Source: Eledone cirrhosa
Lineage: Eukaryota
DNA: 64,000 nt
Assembly: GCA_964016885.1 (NCBI GenBank)
Contig: OZ024740.1
Location: 76,260,001-76,324,000 of the forward strand
Reading direction: 5' to 3'
Shown here one piece after another: positions 3,634 to 63,657 of the stretch. The notes under the pieces were generated by a model. It searched no databases and was not told the DNA's origin. It worked only from the letters and a program-made list of their open reading frames with translations. Position numbers and translations under genes: made by a program. Every line of letters begins with the position of its first letter. Position 1 is the stretch's first letter.

Positions 3634-3860
3634 TTAAAAAAATATTAACTTTTCAACAAGAAAAAACTTTTTTTTTGTTTAACTATTTCGCCTAAAGGCG
3701 TAGAATATTTTGAGAGACTGACCAGATCAAAGTTTGACCTGGCAGTCCCTCTACAAAATGGTACAAAAATTAAAGTTATCAGACAAGAATTTCTATAGAA
3801 ATTTAAACAGAACTTACTCAGCAAGTTATACGCGTGTGTCCATCCCAGATTAGATTACAA

Positions 3861-9113: not shown

Positions 9114-9297
9114 TTTAAAATCTTGTCAATATTTTAAAATTAAATTTCCGCCCCTGTGGGGCGAAAACTGAGATTACAACCCAGCTGACAATACAGCCTA
9201 GGTGTTAATCTATCAAACAATATAACATTTTACACAATGAATTCTGTTTTTGTATGGAAAATTTTACAAAAACTTACCAGCGATCAACCGCACGTCC

Positions 9298-9333
9298 GAT
9301 AGAGAGAGAGATAGATAGATAGATAGATAGATA
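9298..9333. repeat. (GA)n/(GATA)n microsatellite between E2 and E3
   Basis: Read directly. Confidence 0.95.
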
Positions 9334-9598
9334 TGTTTCTTTTATTTGCCACCAGGGCATCAAAAGTGGGACAAGTACAAAGGGGGGAGTTTACACAAAA
9401 AGGCGTCCTCAATAAGGAGGAGGCAATAACAATGTATAAAAATAAAATAAAATATAACAAAAAATTAAAATTTATAACAAAATCCTCAATAGAGAGGAGG
9501 CGCCTTGGGGGGTCGCACACACCCCCGAAAAAAGTGTGCAACCCTTTTCCTCAGGAGCACAGAGAGGGGGTGCTCCCTCGTTCCTTCCTCTTTTCCAC

Positions 9599-12500
9599 CT
9601 ACAGGCTTATGTAAAGAGAAGGCCCATTCACACAGGCCATTCTCGCCACTTTCACCCACCTTTCATAAAAACGACTGGGGTGGAGCACCTCTCTCTCCAT
9701 CCTGATCCTTCTTCCGAAATGATATCGGAAGAAACGGACCAGTTGTGGCCAGAGAGAAAGGTGCCTGACCTCAGTCCTTTCAGACGCGTCCACCATACAA
9801 CTTCTTTCACCATGGCTATTACGCACAGAAACAGCGCCTCTCCTTCATCTTTGAAGGGGGGAGGCGGCTTGATCATTACAATAGACTCGGTGGTCAACCG
9901 GATCGGTCCCACCCTTGACAGCAGTTGTTCGACATAGCCCCACAGATCGGCTACGCCCGAGCAGTGTACCAATGCGTGTGCAACGGTTTCCTCGTCGCAC
10001 ACGCATCTGGGACAGATCTTTTTGGCGGGGTCCCTACCCGGGCGCCCGTGTCTGTAGAGCTTTTCTCGGACGGGTAGAGCCCCTCGGTAGCACTGCCAGG
10101 CCAGGGACTTCTGGAAGTTGTCCATAGGTCCCGGGCTGAATGTCCTACCGAACAGGCTGGCCAGTTCGTCCTCCTCCATGTCTAGGGCTTCTCCGAGGGC
10201 GTCGTCGCACCTGCTGCGTACCAGCCCTCTATAGAATGTTGCGGTGGAGTCTCCACTGATAACCGGATCCGCCTGCCAGAGGGCGGTGAGCGCCTGGGCA
10301 CACTCAGTGTGCCAGGCTCCCAGTTTTCTCGGTCTTTGCTTGACCCAGGATTGCAGCTCGGTGAGTGAGACGAGTCTGGGAAAGGCTCGCCTCACAAACG
10401 AGGCCCACACCGGTTGACCGGTGAGGAATACGTAGAGGTGCCGTAGCCTTAATGCGTGTTTACGCATCATTAGCCACGGCATCCCCAGCCCTCCTTTCGA
10501 AGGGTGTTGACAGCAGATGGATCTCCTCACCATAGGCGCCCGCCTCTTCCAAAGGAATTGGAAGAGCGCGCGCTCCATCTTGGTGAGGGTTTCCCTTGGG
10601 GAGGGCACTACTGTCAGGCGGTAGTAGATGACGGACGCTATGTAGGTGTTCGCCACCTCCGCCCGACCTTTCAGGGATAGTTTGCAACTGGCCCACTTCT
10701 GGGTCAGTGCAAACACCCTGTTCGTAACCTCCGCCCAGTTCTTCTCCACCTGGAGGTCCGGTCCGAACCAGACCCCGAGCAACTTCACCGGGCCCTCCGT
10801 CCAGCGTCCGACGACGCCATCGGAGGGCATTGGTCTGCCCCTCCACGTGCCGAGTTGCAAACCGATCGACTTGTCCCGGTTCAGCTTAGCCCCTGTGAAC
10901 CTTTCGTACTCCTCCAGTAAGGTGCCGACCGCCTCGATTTCGGAGGCCGTCGACACCATTACTGTCACGTCATCGGCGTAGGCCGACACTGCTTTCCGCA
11001 ATCCCGGTTCCAAAGGGATGCCCTGAAACAACTCCAACTTCCGCAGTAGTGGCTCGAGAGTCCACACATACAGAAGGGAGGAGAGAGGGCACCCTTGTCG
11101 GATGGACCGCGCGATTTTGAACGGCTCCGAGAAGTAGCCGTTCACCTTGACCCTAGAGCAGATGCGGCTGCTGTGCATAGCAGTGATCCAGCCCCTGAAA
11201 ACGGGTCCGAAGCCTGCCGCCGCTAGCACCGCATCCAGGTAACCATGGTCGACCCTATCGAACGCCTTAGATTGATCCAAGTTGATCAGAGCCCCACCAA
11301 AGCCGGGTTCGTTCCCAACCCTCTCTATGATGTATCGCATGAGGTGGAGGTTGTCATGGATGGACCTGGACGGGATAGCGCATGTCTGCGCATCTCTAAC
11401 CAGGTTGCCCACGACAAGCGCCAACCTCTTTGCTAGCACGTTGGCCAAAATCTGTAACTCTGTATTTAGCAGAATTATGGGCCTGAAGTTACTTATTTCG
11501 TCCCCCTTGTTCTCGTCCTTCCTCACTAGCGTGACTACGCCCTTGGTCACAGTACAGGGAATTCTCCCGTTCTGTTGCCAGTTGCAGTAGACCGCCTCGA
11601 GGAGATCGGGGAACAAGTCCGGCATAGCTAGATATAATTCGTAAGGAAGACCATCGAGACCCGGGGATTTGCGTTTGCCGCATTGGCCCAGCACGTCCTC
11701 TATCTCAGCGGCCGAAATCGGTTCCTCGCAGGACTTCGCCTCCCTGTCCGAGAGACGCGGCAGGCCGTCGAGGTATGGACCGAAGTCCACATTCCCAACC
11801 GGCTCCCCGCCCCTCCCGAACAGTCGGGCAAAGTGCCTTTGAAAGGCCTCACACATCTGCTTAGGCTCAAGAATCGCCCGTCCATCCAGGTCTCGCAAAG
11901 ACCGGATGGTGGATTTAGTTCCACTGTTGGCCTCTGTCACGCAGGCCCAGCTAACAGCTTTGGTCCCCTCGTTCCCTAGAGCACGTATTTTACTTCGGAC
12001 AACGCAGCCTTCGTGCTTCGCGTCGAAAAACTGGCTCAAAGCCGTTCTCGATGCTAGCACTCTGGCCACGTCGCCGCTTCTAATTGCCTCTTCTACTCTA
12101 TCTATTAGCTCCCTTTCCTTCCTATTCCTATCCGCAGCTAGAACCTTACTAAATTCTATCGAGACTACTCTAATCTCTCTCTTTAGAGATACCCACCACC
12201 TGCTGTTGACGATCGCTCCAGTCAACCGTTCCTTAACTAACGTACTAATCCGATCCCTGTAGGCTCTACTTGCCGGCAAGGACAAGTTGAGCTTCCAGTA
12301 ACCGGGGCTCTGTCTATGCGTTCTATCAAGGTTGACCATGCAGGTCACCAACTTGTGGTCTGAGTAGCAAACCATGAGCATTTCTGGACAACTTAAAAAG
12401 TCCCTGTCCTTATTTCTAACTAAAAATCTATCTAGGTACGACCTAGATGATCCGCTGCGATTTGACCAAGACCAGGTTGGCACCGTCGGAAAATCTAGTC

Positions 12501-13035
12501 GAAATCTATCGGCCAGGTCAAATCGGCCGAGTAACCCCTTGAGGCTCTTGCACCCCTCTCTATCGGGACATGCCCCTGCATAGTCCCAACGTGCATCCAG
12601 GATACCATTCCAATCCCCCACTAAGAGCAGGGAACGGGACGTCCCTAGAAAAGACTCCAGGCGCTGGAAAAAGTCGGGCCGCTCTGTCCCGAAAGGGGCA
12701 TATGCGGCTACCAGCCTAAAGGCTCTACCTTCACCACTGCCAAGGTCCAGCACGACCAGTCGACCCCCTGGGTCCAAGTGAACTATCTGTGTTGCAAGGT
12801 CCATATGTTTTTGCAGCAGAACGACAACCCCACCCCCACCTCCGGGCTGACAGAGAGATGCGTGCATCTCAAAGTCGTCAAAGGTGGGGGCTAGCTGCCG
12901 CATGCTGCTGATCCGGGCCTCGCAGATAACCATCACATTTATAGATTGTGACCTGAGGTCATTTAGAAGCATTGCTTGCTTCCAAGACGAGCCCAGGCCA
13001 CGCGCATTTAGACACCCTACTCTTAGCACAGCCAT
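9599..13035 (-). CDS. E3 ORF2: APE endonuclease, reverse transcriptase, C-terminal CCHC zinc finger
   Basis: 1135-aa open frame 9652..13059, likely ATG at 13035 in CACCAAC-ATG-G context; motifs GDWNG, YLDRF, SDHK, KSPGLDGLPYE, DQSKAFDRV, QGCPLS, YADD, CPRC..H....C; a frameshift near 9745 moves the true C-terminus (GPSLYISL*) to 9599. Confidence 0.9.
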
Positions 13036-13059
13036 GTTGGTGGTAAGGAGAAAAGGCAC

Positions 13060-14710
13060 TTACCTCTCTGCGTCCCGGGAAACGGGCCGCTCAATTTCCA
13101 TGCTGGTTGGGGATGGGTTGTTGGGTGGGGTGGTGGTTTGTGGAAGTGAAGGGGCATCGGTGTGTTGTGGGGTTGTGGTGTTTGTGGTTGAGTGGGTGTC
13201 TGGGTGGGGCGGGGGGGGGATTTTTTTTAGGAGGACGCGGTCGATTGGTTTGGCGCAGGGGGGGGGGGGGGGGGCACGTCCTCCGTGAAATTTATTTTCA
13301 GTGTTTTGTACAAGTGCATTGGGACTTTTATCATTTTTAAATGAGGTAGTCCCACAGCAGTTATAAAGTTAGGCCCTTCAGTTTGGACCGAAGGGTTTGC
13401 TGAAATTGTTTTCCGTAATTCTTTGTTGTCTGTGTTCATGTATGTATATTGTAAGGTCTTTTTTTGTGTAGCAGTTAGTGTTGTGTGACAGGGAGGGGTG
13501 GTTTGTGTGTAGTTTGTGTTCTCTTGGGGGGGGGGGGGGTTAAAGTTAACATGTGTGTCTGTGGTGCGTCTCCTCTTCTTTCTTTTTACTTGTTGGAAGG
13601 GATCTTTTTCGTCTTGCGACGAAAGGGGTTCGTCTTCCTTGTTGGGTGGGAGGGGTATGTTTTCTGGTAGTGTTTGCGGTGTGTGTGTTTTTGTATTTGT
13701 TTTGGGTGGGGAGGGATTAGGTGGGACAGTATTCTGTGTTATTTTTTCACGTGTTTGTTGTTGTGGTGGTGGTGGTGGGGTTGTTGGTTTTTGTCGTTGT
13801 TGTTGTTGTGGTTGTTTTTGTTGTTGTTGTTGGGGTGGTGTTGGTGTTGGTAGCAGTGTTTTTTTCTGTGTGAGCTGGGGACAGGCAGCCCTCAGGTGAC
13901 CTCTATTACCACAGAGGTAACAGGAGGGACGCCTACCCTCCACAATAATGTTGAGGTGGGTACGGTCATCCAGCACGACGCGCTCAGGGATTTGGGCGAT
14001 GCGTTCTGGCCTTATTTGGGTCAGAACTTCGATGCTCGTTCCACTGAACGCGTCGCCAGATGCCTTCCCTATTGAAATGAGGTTGTCCTCGTCTAAATTG
14101 AGGAAGCCGGTTAGTAACCACCAGTAGTTTATGTTTGGGGTGATGGTGGTTATCCATATCCTCTGGGTTTTTTTACCCATGTAGGTGGGGAAGAAGGTGT
14201 AGTGTGTGGACCGAATTGGCGACACAGAGTATTTTTTCGCCGCCAATTCGTCTTTCATCAATATGGATAAACTCCCATAGAGTTTATCCTTTTGTATAAA
14301 AGTGATGTCTCTCATCGCTTCTTTCAATACTAACTGAATTTCAGCTTGAGATGGTTGTGATGGTTTTTTTGTTTTATTTAAAATTGTTCGGAATACGACA
14401 GTTCGTAATTCCGTCTGTTTTTTTAGTTCTGGAGGTGAATGTATAGAAAACGAACCGTTTTCGCCAAAAGATACATATTTCTTGGCTTTTTCCAGCATTT
14501 CTTTTGCTTTTGAAATGTCTTCCAGCACATACGCGACTGATAATTTAGCCGTTTGTGCAAAAGATATTTTGTTTTCGCTTTGGATTTTAGTATTGTTTTG
14601 TTTCTCGTCGTTTGAGTTGTTTTCATCTTTGTTGTTGTTGTCTTTCTCGTTTGGTGTGTGAATACTTGTGACGTTTGTGTTGTTGTTGTTTTTGTTGTCA
14701 TTATTGTTGC

Positions 14711-14741
<31 letters not shown>

Positions 14742-14915
14742 TTCAAATTCTTGTATAGTTGTGGCTACATCTAGTGGTCGGTCAACAGGTGAAGACAATT
14801 CTTCCTCTCTCTGACCTCTGCCTTTGGCATCTGCTGCTGTGACAGTGGCAGGGGGAAACTGTGAGTATGACTTCCCCTTTCCTTCTTTGATTGATGGTGA
14901 AGATGCTTTAGCCAT
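13060..14915 (-). CDS. E3 ORF1: gag-like RNA-binding protein with CCHC zinc knuckle
   Basis: 565-aa frame 13227..14924 with poly-Asn, CYLCGNRGHLRAAC, Q/P tract and KRKKRR; apparent frameshift in the poly-G run near 13258-13274; true stop at 13060-13062 by alignment to E1. Confidence 0.85.
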
Positions 14916-15136
14916 TTTTCTCAAAATAGGGTTTTTCGAAGTTTTTCAAAAGATAAAACGTTTACAATACTATTTCGCCCAAAGGCGCAGAATATTTTGA
15001 GAGACCGACCAGATCAAAATTTGACCTGGCAGTCCCTCTACAAAATGGTACAAAAATGAAAGATAACAGTTTACAATTTCCGGATGAATTTAAACAAAAC
15101 TTACCGAGCGAGCTCAGCACATGTGTCCATCGTAAA

Positions 15137-15137
15137 G

Positions 15138-15184
<47 letters not shown>

Positions 15185-15189
15185 CACAG

Positions 15190-15278
<89 letters not shown>
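15137..15278. repeat. (GATA)n followed by (GA)n at the E3 5' junction
   Basis: Read directly. Confidence 0.96.
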
Positions 15279-16673: not shown

Positions 16674-16862
16674 TAGCGGTGGATTGGCAGTATCGGTAGA
16701 GGGTCAGACGCCATGCTTTGCAGCAAAGAGTTACGGCCCTTTATGGTCTGAGTTCAAATACCGCCGAGGTTAACTTTACCTTTCCTCAATACGGGGTCGA
16801 TAAAATATAGTACCAGTAATACACTGGGATAATTGCTGGCCTTGTGCCAAAAGTAAAAACAA
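16674..16862 (+). mobile_element. tRNA-derived SINE family 1
   Basis: A-box-like TGGCAGTATCGG, B-box GTTCAAAT, core TTTCATCCTTACGGGGTCGATAAAATAAAGTACCAG-like (resembles the Meta-type SINE domain, from memory); about seven similar copies in the window. Confidence 0.8.
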
Positions 16863-18341
16863 ATATATTTCAGTTACTCTTTTTGAAAGGCAACCTGTTT
16901 ACAATTGTCATTTCACGAAAAGGGAAAGAGACTACTTTGAAGGAGAGTGACTGAAACATTTTCTCTGAAATATCAGGGATTTAACCAATCTATTTGTGTT
17001 TTAACTCATACCAATATTCAGGAATATTTTCTGTAGAGACCGAGAAATTGTTTGCTGATAATCGACAACTCCTCCATTAATAACCAGGCAAAACGATTGA
17101 CAAGGAGGAAATATAAAGATTAGGAGCTACCTAGGAGTCTAATACATTCTGTTTCACAATAATTCCATCTATACTGAAAAGAAATACCTTTCTTATTTGA
17201 ATAGAAAGTCGATTAAAAATTTCAAACAATCAATTTTAAATTATCTGACATTGATTTTATCGCTAAAAGGTCCATCAATTAAATGTAGCAGGTTGTCGCA
17301 ACCATTTCCTGAATAAACATGGAGTCTCATTGTTTTTTTACTATAGCGAGAAATGTATGTTAGATGATTAGCAAAGAAAGCGAAAGAATGTAAAATGCAT
17401 CACATAGTAAAACCAATCGCACATCATGCTGCAAACATTTATGGACACTACTTCTGGTACCCGTCACTGAAGAACAATTATTGCTGGCGAATCCAAGAAT
17501 ATTTTCGGATGGAATGTTTCTCTATTGTTACGAAGATTGTAATGTAAAGATCAAGGTTTCATTGTAAAATATCAAGCTTATTCAAACGAAAGAATCTCAC
17601 AACTATAGATAAAATTTGTTTAAGTGAAATATCTGTACTTTCATCAATTGTTTTGAAGATAACCTTTATCACTGTTTTTTCATAAAGGTTATTTAATGCT
17701 GAATGATATATGAAAGTTTGGATCTTGTCATTGCTAATTTTTCAGCTAATTTTTCAGCAAATTTACTATCCAGAAATTATTTTTTGCATACTATCATAGG
17801 GTGATCAATATTTGCTTAGAGAATGTTATGTTTAGCAAATTCACTTTTAGCTGTTTGTTTACTAGATTATCCACATAAAAAAGACTTCTTTTGTAGAAGT
17901 TCTGTGTTTCATTAGTGTGGATTTATTGTATTTCTCAGAGTAACACTGCGACACCAATCTGTAAATACAAACCTTGCAGTCATTGTTTCAGGGATGATTG
18001 TACATGCTACATCGTCTTTTGTTTTCAATAGGAGCTTCAAGTCCATCATGCTCTATGATAGAAGGTAAGCCATATACAAATGTAACAGAAAATGGGGTAG
18101 TTTATACAAACGCCGTGACACCCAACCAACACCAACACTAAACACTGGGGTCATCAGATGTAAGAAAGTGTATATATAAGTCTATATTCGTCCGATCTTT
18201 ATGTGTACATGTCTGTCAGTCTAAGTGTCTGTTTATATGTTTACATATGTGTCGATCTATCTCTATTTGAGTGTATGTGTGAGCCATTGGAGTGTGTTTG
18301 TGTGTGTTAGTTTATGTGTATATATTATTCAACTATTATAT

Positions 18342-18502
18342 ATAGCGGTGAATTGGCAGTATCGGTAGAGGGTCGGACGCCATGCTTTGAGTTCAAATCC
18401 CGCCGAGGTTAACTTTGCCTTTCATCCTTACGGGGCCGATAAAATAAAGTACCAGTAATGTACTGGATAATTGCTGGCCTTGTGCCAATAGTAGAAACAA
18501 TT
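18342..18502 (+). mobile_element. SINE family 1 copy with internal deletion
   Basis: Similar to 16674-16862. Confidence 0.8.
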
Positions 18503-19009
18503 ATATATAGTTCATCTGCATTGTGACAGCTTTCCAAATAACAAACATATTCTAAAATGTTTAAATTTTTCCAATATTTCGTAAACGACCCAATGATAAA
18601 ATGTAGTCGTCCAGTACACTGCAGATATGCAGTTTGATTACCGCAGGCGTTTCTGTTCACTTGTGTCACCTACAATGGTATTTTATTTGAATTATTCAAG
18701 TATTACTTATAGTTCATTTGCAGTGTGCGGCTTTTCAAAAAGAATATGTATTTTCAAATTTTCCCCAAGCTATTGATTACCGAATGTTTTACCTAAAATA
18801 CGTTGATTTAGAAGATTCGTCTGCCAATCGGATTTTTTCATTGTTATTGTTGTATTTGTCACGTTCCTTCCGTTTCGTTTGTTGGTATTTTGTTCTATTT
18901 CCAACTCGTTTCATTACATTTTATTTATCACATATTCCAACCTAAAGCTGTACTCTCTCGTTTCTCTGACGTTTGGCTTACTACGACTACTTACTATTAA
19001 CTGCGACCA

Positions 19010-19232
19010 GGGCGTTGGACTGGCAGTATCGGTAGAGCGTCGGACAACATGCTTTGCAGTATAGAGTTTATGGCTCTTTATGATCTGATTTCAAATCCCG
19101 GCGAGGTTAACTTTGCTTTCCATCCTTACCAGGGTCGATAAAATAAAGTACCAGTAATGCACTGGGGTTGATTTAATCGACTTTCTCCTCCACCAAAATT
19201 GTGGCCTTGTGCCTAAATCAGAAACCATTATT
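19010..19232 (+). mobile_element. SINE family 1 copy
   Basis: Similar to 16674-16862. Confidence 0.8.
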
Positions 19233-34838: not shown

Positions 34839-35099
34839 CAACAGAAATGCATGCTACCTAAGGTTTCAAATTTCAGACATCACAGGACAGAGCAATTTCT
34901 TTAACTGCTAGTAAAAGATGGTTGATCGTTATTTCATATAAGAGATCTCGTCGGATATACGGGAGTTAATAATGTGATAATACATTTGGTGTTTTTGTTA
35001 TGCAACGGATACAACTGCATGTTATACATACATACATATATACATATATACATACATATATACATACATACGAAATACATACGTATATCAGAATTATAT

Positions 35100-35290
35100 A
35101 ATTGTTTCTACTTTAGGCACAAGGCCAGCAATTATCCAGTGGATTACTGGTACTTTATTTTATCGACCCCGTAAGGATGAAAGGCAAAGTCAACCTCGGC
35201 GGGATTTGAACTCAGATCGTAAAGGGACGTAACTGTGCTGGAAAGCATGGCGTCCGACCTTCTACCGATACTGCCAATCCACCGCCCTTC
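35100..35290 (-). mobile_element. SINE family 1 copy
   Basis: Reverse complement similar to 16674-16862. Confidence 0.8.
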
Positions 35291-38620: not shown

Positions 38621-38647
<27 letters not shown>

Positions 38648-38651
<4 letters not shown>

Positions 38652-38835
38652 GTTTCAACTTTTGGCACAAGGCCAGCAATTATCCCAGTGCATTACTGGT
38701 ACTTTATTTTAACGGCCTTGTAAGGATGAAAGGCAAAGTTAACCTCGGCGTGATTTGAACTCAGATCGTAAAGGGCTGTAACTCTATGCTGCAAAGCATG
38801 GCGTCCGACCCTCCACCGATCCGATACTGCCAATC
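38648..38835 (-). mobile_element. SINE family 1 copy
   Basis: Reverse complement similar to 16674-16862. Confidence 0.8.
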
Positions 38836-39449: not shown

Positions 39450-39869
39450 TCATCATCGTCTTTTTTCCGTAACTCCTGATGGAATCCTTCCCCAGGTCTA
39501 AAAACGACCAATCTTTTTTCAGAAAAGGAAATGCAGGGAAAGGAGAAATTTAGAGATAAAGGGAAAGAACCGACACCAATATTAAACTGGTACTATTGTT
39601 TTCAACATCGAAATGATGAAGAGCAATGTTGATATCGGCGTGATTTCTACTCAAAGCGCAGGAAGTAAATAAGGCAAAGTATTTTAACCCATGTTTTAAT
39701 GACTCAGCTAAATCACTTTGTATATATGAGATGTCAACATGAATGGACCTGTTATTTTTATCTAAAGACATTTTTTCCAATTCCATCCCGCCCGTCCCCT
39801 CAATCTATCTTATTTCTCATTCGTTCTTCTGATGAAGGATTAGCGTCCGAAATCATTTTCTTCAGTTCA

Positions 39870-41492
39870 TCGGATTTTGCTGTGGAGAAATGCGTAGAAA
39901 TGATCAGCGAGAGCAAGGTTGAGTTCCGTGGGATTGATACCAGTGAGCTGGGACTTCTACTTAAGCTTACCTATAGTAATAGTTACCTAGACACATATGA
40001 CCTTAGCAACCTGTGCCCTACAAGACCAGCAAGAGGCAGACCACCTACCATTACCTCAATGGCCAAGAAAACCCACACAGATAGATGGAACGGGTGGACC
40101 AGAGCCATACGGACACCCGAAAACCACGATGAACTGAAGAAAATGATTGCACATGCGGTAGGGGCCAGCATAAAACTAACCCTTAAGGAACATATGTTCA
40201 AATTTAATGGAAAAACATATGCCCAAGAGGAAGGAGCAGCCATTGGTGTTAGCATTGCAGGCGACATAGCTAACTTATTCATGGTATGGTGGGACAGTAG
40301 ACTTAAACTTAAACTTAAAGAACAATTAGAAGACAGCTTAACCCTGATAATGTACTCCCGCTACGTAGATGATATAAACATCGTAGTTAAGACACCCCCA
40401 CTAGAGAACAGTCAGGAACTAGAGAAAAACACAATGGAAAGCATCCAGCAAATAGCAAACTCCATCCACCAGAGCATTAGAGTTACTATAGACTACCCAA
40501 GTAGACACCCCAACCATCGATTACCTGTACTAGACACAGAGATCTGGTTAGATACCATTAACAACCAAAAACAAATCCTCCATTCCCATTATGCCAAACC
40601 CATGACTTCCAAACATCTGATCCACCGAAACTCGGCCATTTCGGACCATACCAAAATCAACATACTGATTGCAGATTTGGTACGGGTGATGAGAAATGTG
40701 TCCCGCATGTGCAACCCCGAAGAACTAGAGAGACACATACAACACTTCATCTACCGTATGCAGTTCTCTGGCTACAATCAGAGAGATAAAATCAGAGTGT
40801 ATAGAGGAGCCAGAACCAAATGGGAAAAAATGGTAAATAATGACATAAATGGGACCTGCCCCTTGTATAGGAGCAAATTTTGGAATAGAATAGAAAGAAC
40901 TAGGAACAAGGCTAATAGAATAAACTCATGGTATGATAGCAATAAATACCAGAGTGTAATGTTCATCGATACAACCCCTAGAGGCGAACTAGCCTACACA
41001 TTTAGAAGGGCCCTAAATAAACATAAACTCAATATTAAGATAGTAGAAAGACCAGGTACCTCCGTAAAAACACTTATTATCAAGACATACCCGTTTCAAA
41101 GACCCTCATGTATAGATAAGAAATGTATAACCTGTAAAATAAGCCCCCATATTAACTGTAAAACTAGAAATGTAGTGTATAGCATAAGATGTACTGAAGG
41201 ACAATGTAGAAACAAAAATATAGTGTACATAGGTGAGACAGCTCGTAGTATAGGGGAACGGATAAATGAACACTGGCGAGACCTTCAAGATAATAAAGAA
41301 TCATCTGTACTCTACCAACATGCTAAGATAGAACACAAGGGTAAATTAGAGAACATAGAAATAAAAATAGAATCTACACACAGAAAAGATGCAATGTTTA
41401 GACAAATTACAGAGGCAATAAACATAAAAGAATTACAACCAAAATTAAATAGAAAATATGAGTGGAACAGCGACATCACAACTTACAATTAA
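39870..41492 (+). CDS. Penelope-like element ORF, 5'-truncated: reverse transcriptase plus GIY-YIG endonuclease
   Basis: Uninterrupted frame (track 39699..41492): FKFNGKTYAQEEGAAIGVSIAGDIANLFM, YSRYVDDI, LPVLD, CxxC, NVVYSIRC...YIGETARSIGERINEH. Confidence 0.88.
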   Translation, partial: SDFAVEKCVEMISESKVEFRGIDTSELGLLLKLTYSNSYLDTYDLSNLCPTRPARGRPPTITSMAKKTHTDRWNGWTRAIRTPENHDELKKMIAHAVGASIKLTLKEHMFKFNGKTYAQEEGAAIGVSIAGDIANLFMVWWDSRLKLKLKEQLEDSLTLIMYSRYVDDINIVVKTPPLENSQELEKNTMESIQQIANSIHQSIRVTIDYPSRHPNHRLPVLDTEIWLDTINNQKQILHSHYAKPMTSKHLIHRNSAISDHTKINILIADLVRVMRNVSRMCNPEELERHIQHFIYRMQFSGYNQRDKIRVYRGARTKWEKMVNNDINGTCPLYRSKFWNRIERTRNKANRINSWYDSNKYQSVMFIDTTPRGELAYTFRRALNKHKLNIKIVERPGTSVKTLIIKTYPFQRPSCIDKKCITCKISPHINCKTRNVVYSIRCTEGQCRNKNIVYIGETARSIGERINEHWRDLQDNKESSVLYQHAKIEHKGKLENIEIKIESTHRKDAMFRQITEAINIKELQPKLNRKYEWNSDITTYN

Positions 41493-56731: not shown

Positions 56732-59700
56732 TGCCTGACGCGTGGAACATCGCCGGTAAGATTTTTTGTTAATTTATATACGAAAAACAGAACAAATTGT
56801 TTGAAAAAACATATTATTTTGTAGATTAACCCCAAACTTAATTGTCAGCTGGGTGGTAATCCCATTTTTCGCCCCTTTAGGGGCGAACATTTAATTTAAA
56901 AATTGTTTTAAAATATTTTGCCAACTATAAAACATGAATAACACGGAAAGAACGCTGGAGAACGTCGACAGAGAAAAGAGAGAGAAAGAGGCAGATTTTA
57001 ACGCTATATCTGCTTCTGCTACTATGGATGTCGCCATTGATACGACTGTCAACAAAGGGAAAAAAATATTGCCACTTGAAGATTGTACAATTTCTACTGT
57101 CGAAGCGGAGAGAAATGAAAACTCAGGAATTAAACCATTAACATACATACACATGAAAAAGTCAACATCAACAACTCCACAGATACATCTACACATAACG
57201 TTTTACCTCGTCAAGGAACCGAGATTTCTAACACCGAGGCTAACAGCGATAACAACAACAACAGCAACACCACACAAAAAATGTCTTTCACTGAAACGAA
57301 ACAGTGAACAAAAAACAAGATTTTATAAATCTTGACATCTCCAATGCAAGAGATATGCTCCAGCAAGGAAGAAAATTTGTAACTTTCGAAGAGAAAGGTG
57401 GGTTTAGAATTAACTCACCCCTTGAAATAAAAGAAGACGCAGTTCGAAGAACAGTGATCTTAAGGACTGTATTCAATACCACGAGAAAGCCGATATTTGT
57501 TAGTCAAACAGATATAGAAGCTACTTTCAAGGAAATTCTAGCAAATATCGACTTTCTCCAACGAGGAAAACAGTACGGAAGTGTTTCCGTACTGTTTAAA
57601 AGCGAGGCACTCGCCCCAAAACATTCTGTGACACCAATGGTGTCAAAAGCATTCACCTTTTTCCCTACATACATGGGAAAAAGGACACAAAAAATAAAAA
57701 TTAAAAATATAGCCCCAAACATTAACATCTGGTGGATCTTGGCTGGTTTTGTAGAGCCAGAAACTTATATGATTCTTTCGATACGAAAGTCTATTCGACA
57801 AAGGTGGGCGGGTCCTGATTTGGAGATTCTGTTGCAAATGTGGCCGGAGAGAATCTCCAAAATACCCGAAAGAGTCGTCATCGACGACAACAACAACATA
57901 AACATTTCGGTAGAAGGACGAAAAATGCATTGCTTTCGCTGTGGTAGCACAGCACACCTAAAAGCCCCCTGTCCTTCACAAACACACCACAACATCATTA
58001 AAAAAACACTATTACCAACATCGACACCAAAACAACCACCACCACCACCACAAGTACAATGACAGACGAAACGAGCAACCACACCAAAACAAACAGCCAC
58101 TCAACCACCAACAACAGAAAAAACAGAGACAACACTCCTGAAGAACACAGCCCCACCCCATACCACTCCATCAAACACTACCACAAACACACACACCGAA
58201 ACACTACCACCACACAAAATACCCCTACCCCACACTCCTGACGATGATTATTCATCGACGGTTGAAGCTGCTTCTCCTTCTTTAAGTGAAGAAGAGGGAG
58301 AGCCGCGGAAATCTAAAAAACAAAAAAAAGAGACACCACAAACCCCCCAAAACTCCAATCACCAACACCAACACACAATCACAGGCATAAACAACAATAC
58401 AAACAACACCACAGTTAAACAACCCCCTACCAGCAAAACCAACACCAACACCACCCCAAACACAAGCACCCACCATAAAAAGAAAACTCCCGGACGAACA
58501 ACAAACTAAACCAACACAACAAAAACACAAACAACAATACGCATACATCAAAACAAACAACAAGAGTTTGATGGAGGTCATCTCCCAAAACCCCAAGGTG
58601 GAGACGGAGGGCAAAACTTTCGTCAAAGCAGAATCGTCTGCACACCTTAAACTTATAAGAGTTTCTATGGAAACCTATAATGACCTCAAAAATAAATTTT
58701 AACAGGACGTGAGCAACCCCTGCCAGAAACCCATCAACCGCGTTCTGTTAAAATGTTTCCCCACCCCACCCAACACCCCATCCAGCACCCAAATGGAGAT
58801 TTAACAACCCGATCTCCAGCAAACGAAAAGGTAAGTGCACCTTTCGTCCTTTTTCTCCAACTCTTCTTCACCAACATGGCTAGTTTACGAGTTGGAAGCG
58901 CGAATGTGCGTAGCCTAGGGATGCCCTGGAAATAGGGCCAACTTTTAAACGACCTTAGTTCACACGGTATGGATGTGATAGCCATCACCGAGTCCAGGAT
59001 CCACAACAGGCAGCAACTAACCCCCATTTTCGACGACTTTGAGATCTACGTATCTCTCTGTCAGCCAGGATGTGGAGGGGAGTGGCTGTCATGTTTCGGA
59101 AGAACCTGGACGTCAAAGTACAGCAAGTACACTTGGACCCGGAGGGTAGACTGGTAGTCCTAGACGTGAACAGTATTGGAGGTGGAGCCTTCAGACTGGT
59201 GGCCGTTTATGCCTCGACCGGGCAATCGCAATCACGGCCAGACTTCTTTAAGCGTCTAGAGACTTTTCTGTGAACGTCTCGATCCTTACTTTTAGTGGGG
59301 GACTGTAATGGTATACTAGATGCACGATGGGACTATGTGGGAGCATGTCCCAGTAGAGGGGGGTGTAACAGCCTCAAAACTTTAATCGGCCAATTCCAAC
59401 TGGCCGATAGGTATCGACTGGATTTCCCGACTGCACCACAGTGGACGTGGGTAAACCGCAGCGGGACAACTAGATTGTATTTAGATAGGTTCTTCATTAG
59501 AGAAAGGGACAAGGAGATGTTAAGCTGTCTACGAATGCACATGGTTGCCTATTCAGATCACAAATTAGTCGTCTGCTTAGTCAACCGTGATAGAACACAT
59601 AGACAAGGACCCGGATACTGGAAGCTGAACGTGTCGTTGCCGGCACGTAAATCTTACAGTGAACGGATAAGTAGACTAGTCAAGCAACAGTTAACAAGAG

Positions 59701-63420: not shown

Positions 63421-63489
63421 GGGACGATTGGAGAAAGCGTGCTGAATCTTTGCGAGTGTAACCTCGGCCGAAAAAGAAGATATATATAT

Positions 63490-63657
63490 AATTGTTTCTA
63501 CTTTTGGCACAAGGCCAGCAATTATTCCAGTGCATTACTGGTACTTTATTTTATCGACCTCGTAAGGATGAAAGGCAAAGTTCACCTCGGCAGGATTTGA
63601 ACTGAGACCATAAAGGGTCATAACTCTATACTGGAAAGCATGGCGTCCGACCCTCTA
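63490..63657 (-). mobile_element. SINE family 1 copy, head truncated
   Basis: Reverse complement similar to 16674-16862. Confidence 0.78.

Follow-up and report, generated by a model that had tools for sequence, protein, structure and literature searches.

A family of LINE retrotransposons in the Eledone cirrhosa genome carries, in the 5' UTR of all 13 lineages sampled, a GT...AG unit of 55-69 nt that begins with a splice donor and ends with an AG. Judged from its sequence, this unit has a little better than an even chance of being a promoter-proximal U1 site or a mini-intron. In that role it would support transcription, export or translation, and splicing would seldom remove it from the RNA that is copied. 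A LINE group whose 13 lineages have all kept a leader donor and acceptor, and a second donor where ORF1 stops, offers a high-copy natural model for studying how a retroelement without introns may use U1 to complete transcription without splicing losses. In the open-access literature, which was the scope of our search, we found no description of a leader intron being retained in elements of the Tx1/L1 type.

The window analysed here is a stretch of 64,000 nucleotides (G000:C1:76260001-76324000) of a 3.0-Gb genome and holds a cluster of related head-to-tail elements with (TCTA)n between them (Table 1). Their ORF2 encodes an N-terminal endonuclease, a reverse transcriptase (RT) and a C-terminal zinc domain (matches to PF03372 and PF00078, with PF13966 under the cut-off), and their ORF1 a CCHC-knuckle/RNA-binding-domain protein; the ORF1 match to PF00098 (E 0.003) is under the cut-off, and its Atlas look-alikes (0.90-0.93) are CCHC/RRM proteins. 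Full-length and truncated copies are flanked by TCTA or ATT arrays, a preference for repeat targets being a trait of the Tx1 clade. Because an endonuclease/RT/zf-RVT ORF2, a CCHC ORF1 and microsatellite targeting occur together (compare PMC4494074, in excerpt), the elements fit, by architecture and target, L1/Tx1-type LINEs. The best named matches of ORF2 are 21-26% identical, with no named Tx1 reference among the matches returned, and closer relatives (P0003-P0049) stand at about 40% identity. A Penelope-like identity was rejected for the E1-E7-type family, which shows no RT-GIY-YIG fusion and whose likeness to Penelope is confined to the promoter intron. The family was sampled by DNA searches, pattern searches and an ORF1 protein search of which all 105 matches were fetched, yielding the 13 lineages; their ORF2 5' ends (12 compared) are 59-95% alike. 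The ORF1 of E1 extends to the TAA within the ORF1-end donor, unlike that of E3, which stops early.

Table 1. Coordinates of the elements, candidate introns and associated features in the window.
Feature	Position	Strand	Remarks
Element E3	9331-15136	minus	CCHC ORF1 and ORF2 with endonuclease, RT and zf-RVT
(TCTA)n/(TC)n microsatellite array	15137..15278	minus	insertion target immediately 5' of E3
E3 leader, putative exon 1	15105..15136	minus	about 30 nt; true transcription start may be further upstream
Leader ATG of subfamily A	15128..15130	minus	not conserved; amplified sub-lineages lack it or have a TAA after it
RGACRY-type motif (DPE-like)	15123..15128	minus	overlaps G of E3 leader ATG; RGACGTGY consensus from PMC2377424
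E3 candidate 67-nt mini-intron	15038..15104	minus	donor at 15104; GTAAGT donor, U-rich interior without internal AG, pyrimidine tract, TAG acceptor
Hairpin 1	14999..15038	minus	stem begins at G of acceptor AG
Hairpin 2, 5' UTR	14966..14996	minus	
ORF1 (zf-CCHC) of E3	13227..14915	minus	premature end after C-run in E3
ORF1-end donor AG/GTRAGT with ORF1 stop inside	13056..13066	minus	pyrimidine tract, then ORF2 ATG 28-46 nt on
ORF2 of E3	9652..13035	minus	endonuclease, reverse transcriptase, zf-RVT
E1 candidate 67-nt mini-intron	3751..3817	minus	donor at 3817; lineage A2, TAA-bearing leader
E2 candidate 68-nt mini-intron	9210..9277	minus	donor at 9277; lineage B2
E7 candidate 69-nt mini-intron	56756..56824	plus	donor at 56756; lineage B1

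The first-pass annotation had reported a donor followed by a U-rich tract in the leaders of E1, E2, E3 and E7, and all four were found at the sites given in Table 1, each 23-32 nt inside the end of the TCTA array. These sites are homologous and therefore do not amount to four independent cases. A nearby acceptor had not been mentioned: the U-rich tract ends in TAG 67-69 nt 3' of the donor, followed by two hairpins and the ORF1 ATG. Donor strength was assessed with a simple U1-match score against 500 dinucleotide shuffles per lineage. The U1-complementary GT donor stands out in seven A/B/C lineages (p = 0.012-0.06) and is weak in lineages D-I, where it scores no better than shuffled sequence (p 0.26-0.74). 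Among the approximately 270-290 sense-strand GT sites of an element, the leader donor ranks first or second in E2 and E3 and is tied for second to fourth in E7; the two top U1 matches of E2 and E3 are the leader donor and the ORF1-end donor. GTAAGT is present in 61 of 63 fetched A1 leaders, and weak donors, GTTCGT and GTTTGT, occur in lineages F and I. Lineages D and E have no donor at the homologous place; theirs are located 26-30 nt further in and may be due to chance.

The distance from donor to AG is held across the family. Its modal value over all fetched loci is 67/68 nt in A1, 67 in A3, 69 in B1, 68 in B2 and in C, 55 in D (next AG at 63), 60 in E, 66/67 in F, 60 in G and 59 in H; a separate tally gave 67 for A2 and 66 for B3, and two of the three lineage I copies have 62 and 65. 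The acceptor AG lies at 66-70 nt in almost every copy of A, B1 and B2. An AG at such a distance arises in shuffles with a probability of 0.27-0.39 per lineage and jointly of about 4e-4 over seven deep groups, a product calculated with a length window that was picked after data inspection. The unit interiors of deep lineages are for the most part no more similar to each other than shuffled sequences are (z about -3 to +3), while the ORF2 5' ends keep the similarity given above, so that a pyrimidine tract and an AG at a spliceable distance are found over a drifting interior. The details vary: the acceptor is AAG in F, G, H and I; the first AG at least 45 nt from the donor fell at 56 in the C representative and at 47 in that of D; and a branch-like YTRAY, 12-37 nt before the AG, is present in 7 of the 13 lineages, one TTGAT in C being counted. 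Among 71 metagenome loci with 21-29% ORF2 identity, 28 have a match that extends to the ORF2 start, and none of these has a clear leader unit; GTRAG near the ORF2 start occurs in three of the 28, and several of the contigs start close to ORF1. With a junction GTRAG in 3/28 and a clear leader unit in none, the feature is not general at this level of ORF2 identity.

The genome was also searched for copies from which the unit had been removed. The 847 A copies comprise 838 with TAG before exon 2 and nine with another base at -2, and none is intronless (95% upper bound 0.35%); the nine exceptions are eight point changes and one 2-nt loss. When the exceptions rather than all copies were inspected, spliced ones were found neither in lineage B (0/6) nor at the A/D-type ORF1-end donor (0/8). 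The lack of intronless copies among 847 A copies implies that the retrotransposed RNA keeps the intron, and, as read from genomic copies, the RNA that retrotransposes keeps both donors, leader and ORF1-end.

The region downstream of the acceptor is predicted to fold stably in most lineages. Hairpins 1 and 2 of E3 together reach -35.9 kcal/mol (z -5.3, 0/200 shuffles equally low), the 80 nt from the acceptor AG give a fold z of -3 or lower in 10 of the 13 lineages, and in lineages A and B a stem starts at the G or AG of the acceptor. RNAalifold on 24 copies returned no consensus structure, and a named structure tested for covariation was 57% paired, mis-registered and outscored by a +1 slide. 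Bulges put the lineages out of register with one another, and the structure described here is that of single folds.

Five features can be read directly from the genome: the donor, the U-rich interior, the AG at 55-69 nt, the hairpins that follow this AG, and the fact that intronless copies are missing. In the mechanism we propose, the leader donor would be the 5' end of the conserved GT...AG unit and would probably recruit U1 snRNP just after transcription start, and U1 at this place would probably protect the otherwise intron-free 5.8-kb RNA from early termination. The RNA copied into the genome would retain the unit, either because hairpin 1, by pairing the acceptor G, may keep splicing rare or because splicing may take place only in a pool of RNA that escapes reverse transcription. 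We infer each functional step, U1 binding and splicing included, from the sequence. The data on Restrictor, to which we refer here, stem from mammalian cells. A sense 5' splice site was reported to block Restrictor even without splicing. The proposed U1 site would be of the same kind, a strong sense donor close to the start that acts although splicing is scarce or absent; the Restrictor protection was shown on cellular transcripts in reporter assays, not on a LINE or in this host (PMC12211998, in excerpt). In the accessible text on Penelope of D. virilis, an RGACGTGY motif is combined with a 75-bp intron 46 bp from the start, which is retained in copies and the deletion of which abolishes reporter expression (PMC2377424). 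Since a donor can block Restrictor without splicing, and since the Penelope intron is needed yet kept, both serve as precedents for the U1-site reading.

Several findings weigh against that reading. Under cis-preference, spliced copies would be expected, as in human L1, where about 2% of genomic copies are spliced (PMC5860796, in excerpt), and none were found. Donor scores in D-I are at shuffle level, the RGACRY-type motif described below is absent in F, H and I, and YTRAY is limited to 7 of 13 lineages. The need to suppress premature polyadenylation also appears modest, E3 having only two internal AATAAA. Of the earlier interpretation, the promoter-proximal U1 site fits the evidence and remains the best reading, while the splicing of the leader ATG in frame to ORF2 fails the conservation test that had been set for it.

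The alternative with the most in its favour, to which we assign a low but appreciable probability, is that GTAAG and AG are DNA-level promoter motifs, or the base of a hairpin, and only look like splice sites. The human L1 donor G98U99 provides a parallel, being kept because it lies inside a RUNX3 site (PMC5860796, in excerpt); moreover, no spliced copy was found among the 847 A copies, the spacing of the GAC motif is fixed at 19-23 nt in A, B and C, and the AG lies at the base of hairpin 1. Against it stands a second donor, AG/GTRAGT, at the end of ORF1, far from any promoter. It occurs in all 13 lineages (also at 1874, 7346, 27361, 58831 and about 50053 of the window) as AG/GTAAGT, or as GTGAGT with TGA in lineage C, which thus swaps TAA for TGA yet keeps GTRAG. 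The constant donor-AG length of 55-69 nt despite interior drift likewise speaks against motifs that act solely in DNA.

The ORF1-end donor has no conserved nearby acceptor. A further possibility is a splicing switch, which we hold to be decidedly unlikely. Here, a doubly spliced RNA, with the leader intron removed and ORF2 removed by joining the ORF1-end donor to an acceptor at the ORF2 stop, would be an ORF1-only mRNA, and only unspliced RNA would make ORF2p and be copied. Copying of unspliced RNA alone would explain the absence of intronless copies, and it agrees with the cis-preference described in the accessible part of PMC5860796 and with the conservation of both donors. Of 35 distinct copies, 32 end ORF2 with a TAG that a pyrimidine-rich run precedes (window about 9598-9625, minus strand, and many loci), and the other three end it with TAA; the TAG is acceptor-like, yet its context is also protein-coding and may be kept for the protein. 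The TAA stops, this coding context and the 0/8 spliced exceptions at the A/D-type ORF1-end donor all count against the switch. In its broader form, the idea is that of a LINE with a retrovirus-like switch: two conserved donors would sort its RNA into two classes, an unspliced one that serves as genomic and ORF2 template and a spliced one that serves as ORF1-only mRNA, and a hairpin covering the first acceptor would determine their proportions. This form is speculative and of small probability. If true, it would mean that an endonuclease-RT LINE has come to retain introns during retrotransposition, a trait regarded as a hallmark of Penelope-like elements.

The first-pass annotation had proposed that the leader ATG of subfamily A is spliced over ORF1 into the start of ORF2, with ORF1 as the intron, producing an ORF2-only mRNA; a comparable RNA, SpORF2, is known in human L1 (PMC2896524, in excerpt). 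The geometry on which this was based is correct: the E3 leader ATG (15130) lies 26 nt upstream of the donor in phase 2, the join to the ORF2 AG/A site, 42 nt 3' of the ORF1-end donor, is in frame in E3/A1, the E1 leader has TAA at codon 6, and the B-type leaders of E2 and E7 are without ATG. Open ATG leaders are carried by 49 of 59 distinct A1 5' ends at all fetched loci, a set biased toward E3, and AG precedes the ORF2 ATG in C, E, F and H. The leader frame is, however, not open across subfamily A, in which one amplified sub-lineage carries TAA and another is without ATG. Among the first 30 of the 838 genomic A copies, an unbiased sample, 13 have an open ATG leader, 9 have TAA, 4 are without ATG and 4 were unparsed; among distinct A2/A3 5' ends, 13 of 38 are open and 20 of 38 have TAA. 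The phase does not fit in A3 (3/4 copies), and between A1 and A2, 3 of the first 8 codons of the leader peptide are different. In B, D, G and I, as in A, the first AG near ORF2 comes after the ORF2 ATG, yet the leaders of these four lineages contain no ATG. Neither the in-frame start nor the ORF2 acceptor is thus conserved.

The genomic copies contain no trace of such a join. A1 leaders are followed by G in 268 cases, by C in two and by A or T in none, and both C cases are local changes, one a point change and the other a 4-nt duplication, so that a leader joined to the ORF2 AG/A site was found in none of the 270 A1 leaders genome-wide. Among C/E-type exceptions (exceptions only, not all C/E copies), the count was 0/22, and 7 of these 22 belong to a sub-lineage that lost the AG before ORF2. 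The nearer, competing acceptor, only 67-69 nt away, is a simpler account of the leader donor. An ORF2-only mRNA as the function of the leader is for these reasons highly unlikely; a rare RNA of this kind is conceivable, given human SpORF2, but it is not what selection kept. We regard the leader ATG of subfamily A as probably incidental. In the unspliced E3 leader it starts a uORF of 9 codons that ends at the TAA within GTAAG, and in-silico removal of the 67-nt unit turns the A1 ATG into the start of a 33-codon uORF out of frame with ORF1. ATGG occurs near the A-lineage 5' end (window 15127-15131, minus strand) and ATGGCCGC in lineage F (L295, L297). Both resemble the YY1 core, and such a site may also account for the leader ATG.

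A loose resemblance to spliced-leader RNA had also been raised earlier; in such a model the leader would be passed in trans to transcripts of the host or of the element. The short exon, the donor and the U-rich tract, with an AU6G run after the B1 donor, speak for it. It nevertheless has next to no chance of being correct: no Rfam family was matched at gathering score and no SL family at E <= 5, the first 100 nt are not more stably folded than shuffled sequence (z +1.1 to -0.3) and lack the stem-loops expected on either side of an Sm site, an acceptor is available in cis, and A or T follows none of the genomic A1 leaders, both C cases being local changes.

Returning to the U1-site or mini-intron reading, a start site can be proposed from a motif upstream of the donor. 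In Drosophila LINEs and in Penelope, RGACGTGY was described as a downstream promoter element (PMC2377424, in excerpt), and such an element is located +28 to +32 from the start (PMC4748587; also PMC12477816; both in excerpt). An RGACGTGY-like motif, RGACRY, occurs upstream of the donor in 10 of 13 lineages, with none in F, H and I; it lies 20-24 nt from the donor in A, B, C and G and 50-51 nt in D and E, and the A-type leader ATG overlaps its first G. By analogy, the motif may be a downstream promoter element with a start about 28 nt upstream, within the microsatellite, and if this spacing holds, the donor would lie at about +47 to +52, near the +46 of Penelope. In two copies with different flanks (L163 and L171), 29 nt upstream of the GAC motif are common to both and include a piece of the tail of the previous element, possibly a 5' transduction marking the start site. 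This length fits the spacing of the promoter element, while other orphan tails share 33, 37 and about 52 nt upstream; with these three cases being longer, we treat the start site as inferred only.

Retention of an intron after retrotransposition is considered highly unusual and typical of Penelope-like elements (PMC8557442, in excerpt). Penelope and Chlamys-3_cRei share with the present LINEs an RGACGTGY-type motif, a donor and a short intron before the first ORF that is retained in genomic copies (PMC2377424, PMC8557442). The differences concern the intron length (75 bp in Penelope versus a candidate unit of 55-69 nt), the type of element (a GIY-YIG Penelope-like element versus a two-ORF endonuclease-RT LINE), the evidence (RT-PCR for Penelope splicing, sequence for the LINE unit) and the second donor at the ORF1 stop, which goes unmentioned in the accessible text of both reports. 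Human L1, with G98U99, SpIREs and SpORF2 (PMC5860796, PMC2896524, in excerpt), has in common the L1 type and a conserved 5'-UTR donor. Most human L1 RNA is unspliced, a likeness to the present LINEs, whose copied RNA keeps the unit. In contrast, human L1 acceptors are far away (+622 to +976; PMC5860796) instead of 55-69 nt from the donor, and the spliced share of human copies compares with 0/847 A copies here. Kibi and Koshi of the Tx1 clade share the ORF2 with endonuclease, RT and zf-RVT, the CCHC ORF1, microsatellite insertion and head-to-tail arrays; the targets (TCTA)n and (ATT)n of the present LINEs are unlike theirs, and a leader intron is not mentioned for them in the excerpted text (PMC4494074). 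L1-Tx1 families are also listed in PMC13282606, the accessible part of which does not mention introns.

Some further observations concern the family and its surroundings. Lineages F-I are inserted in (ATT)n, not (TCTA)n (L292, L295, L352, L375), a target switch inside one family, and lineage E (L296, L302) is located in a longer C/T-rich satellite. Lineage D (L277, L280, L303) has an A1-like body, with an ORF2 5' end 95% identical, and a different 5' UTR, an apparent promoter swap. At about 211.90-211.91 Mb of the same contig (L054-L061), tandem units of about 0.9-1.3 kb contain only the first ~100 nt of the A leader, candidate intron included, and the spacing near 212.38 Mb resembles that of these units. 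In the sequencing runs X1-X3 (kind not on record), depth climbs toward the 3' end of the element, as DNA copy number does; these runs contain no joint at either donor, which has no bearing on splicing. Within the window, a 607-codon frame at 39669-41492 (plus strand) has weak RT and GIY-YIG matches and represents a Penelope-like element with no relation to the leader donors. A SINE-like repeat of about 190 bp is present in six copies (16674-16868, 18343-18507, 19009-19166, 35075-35288, 38624-38835 and 63480-63657).
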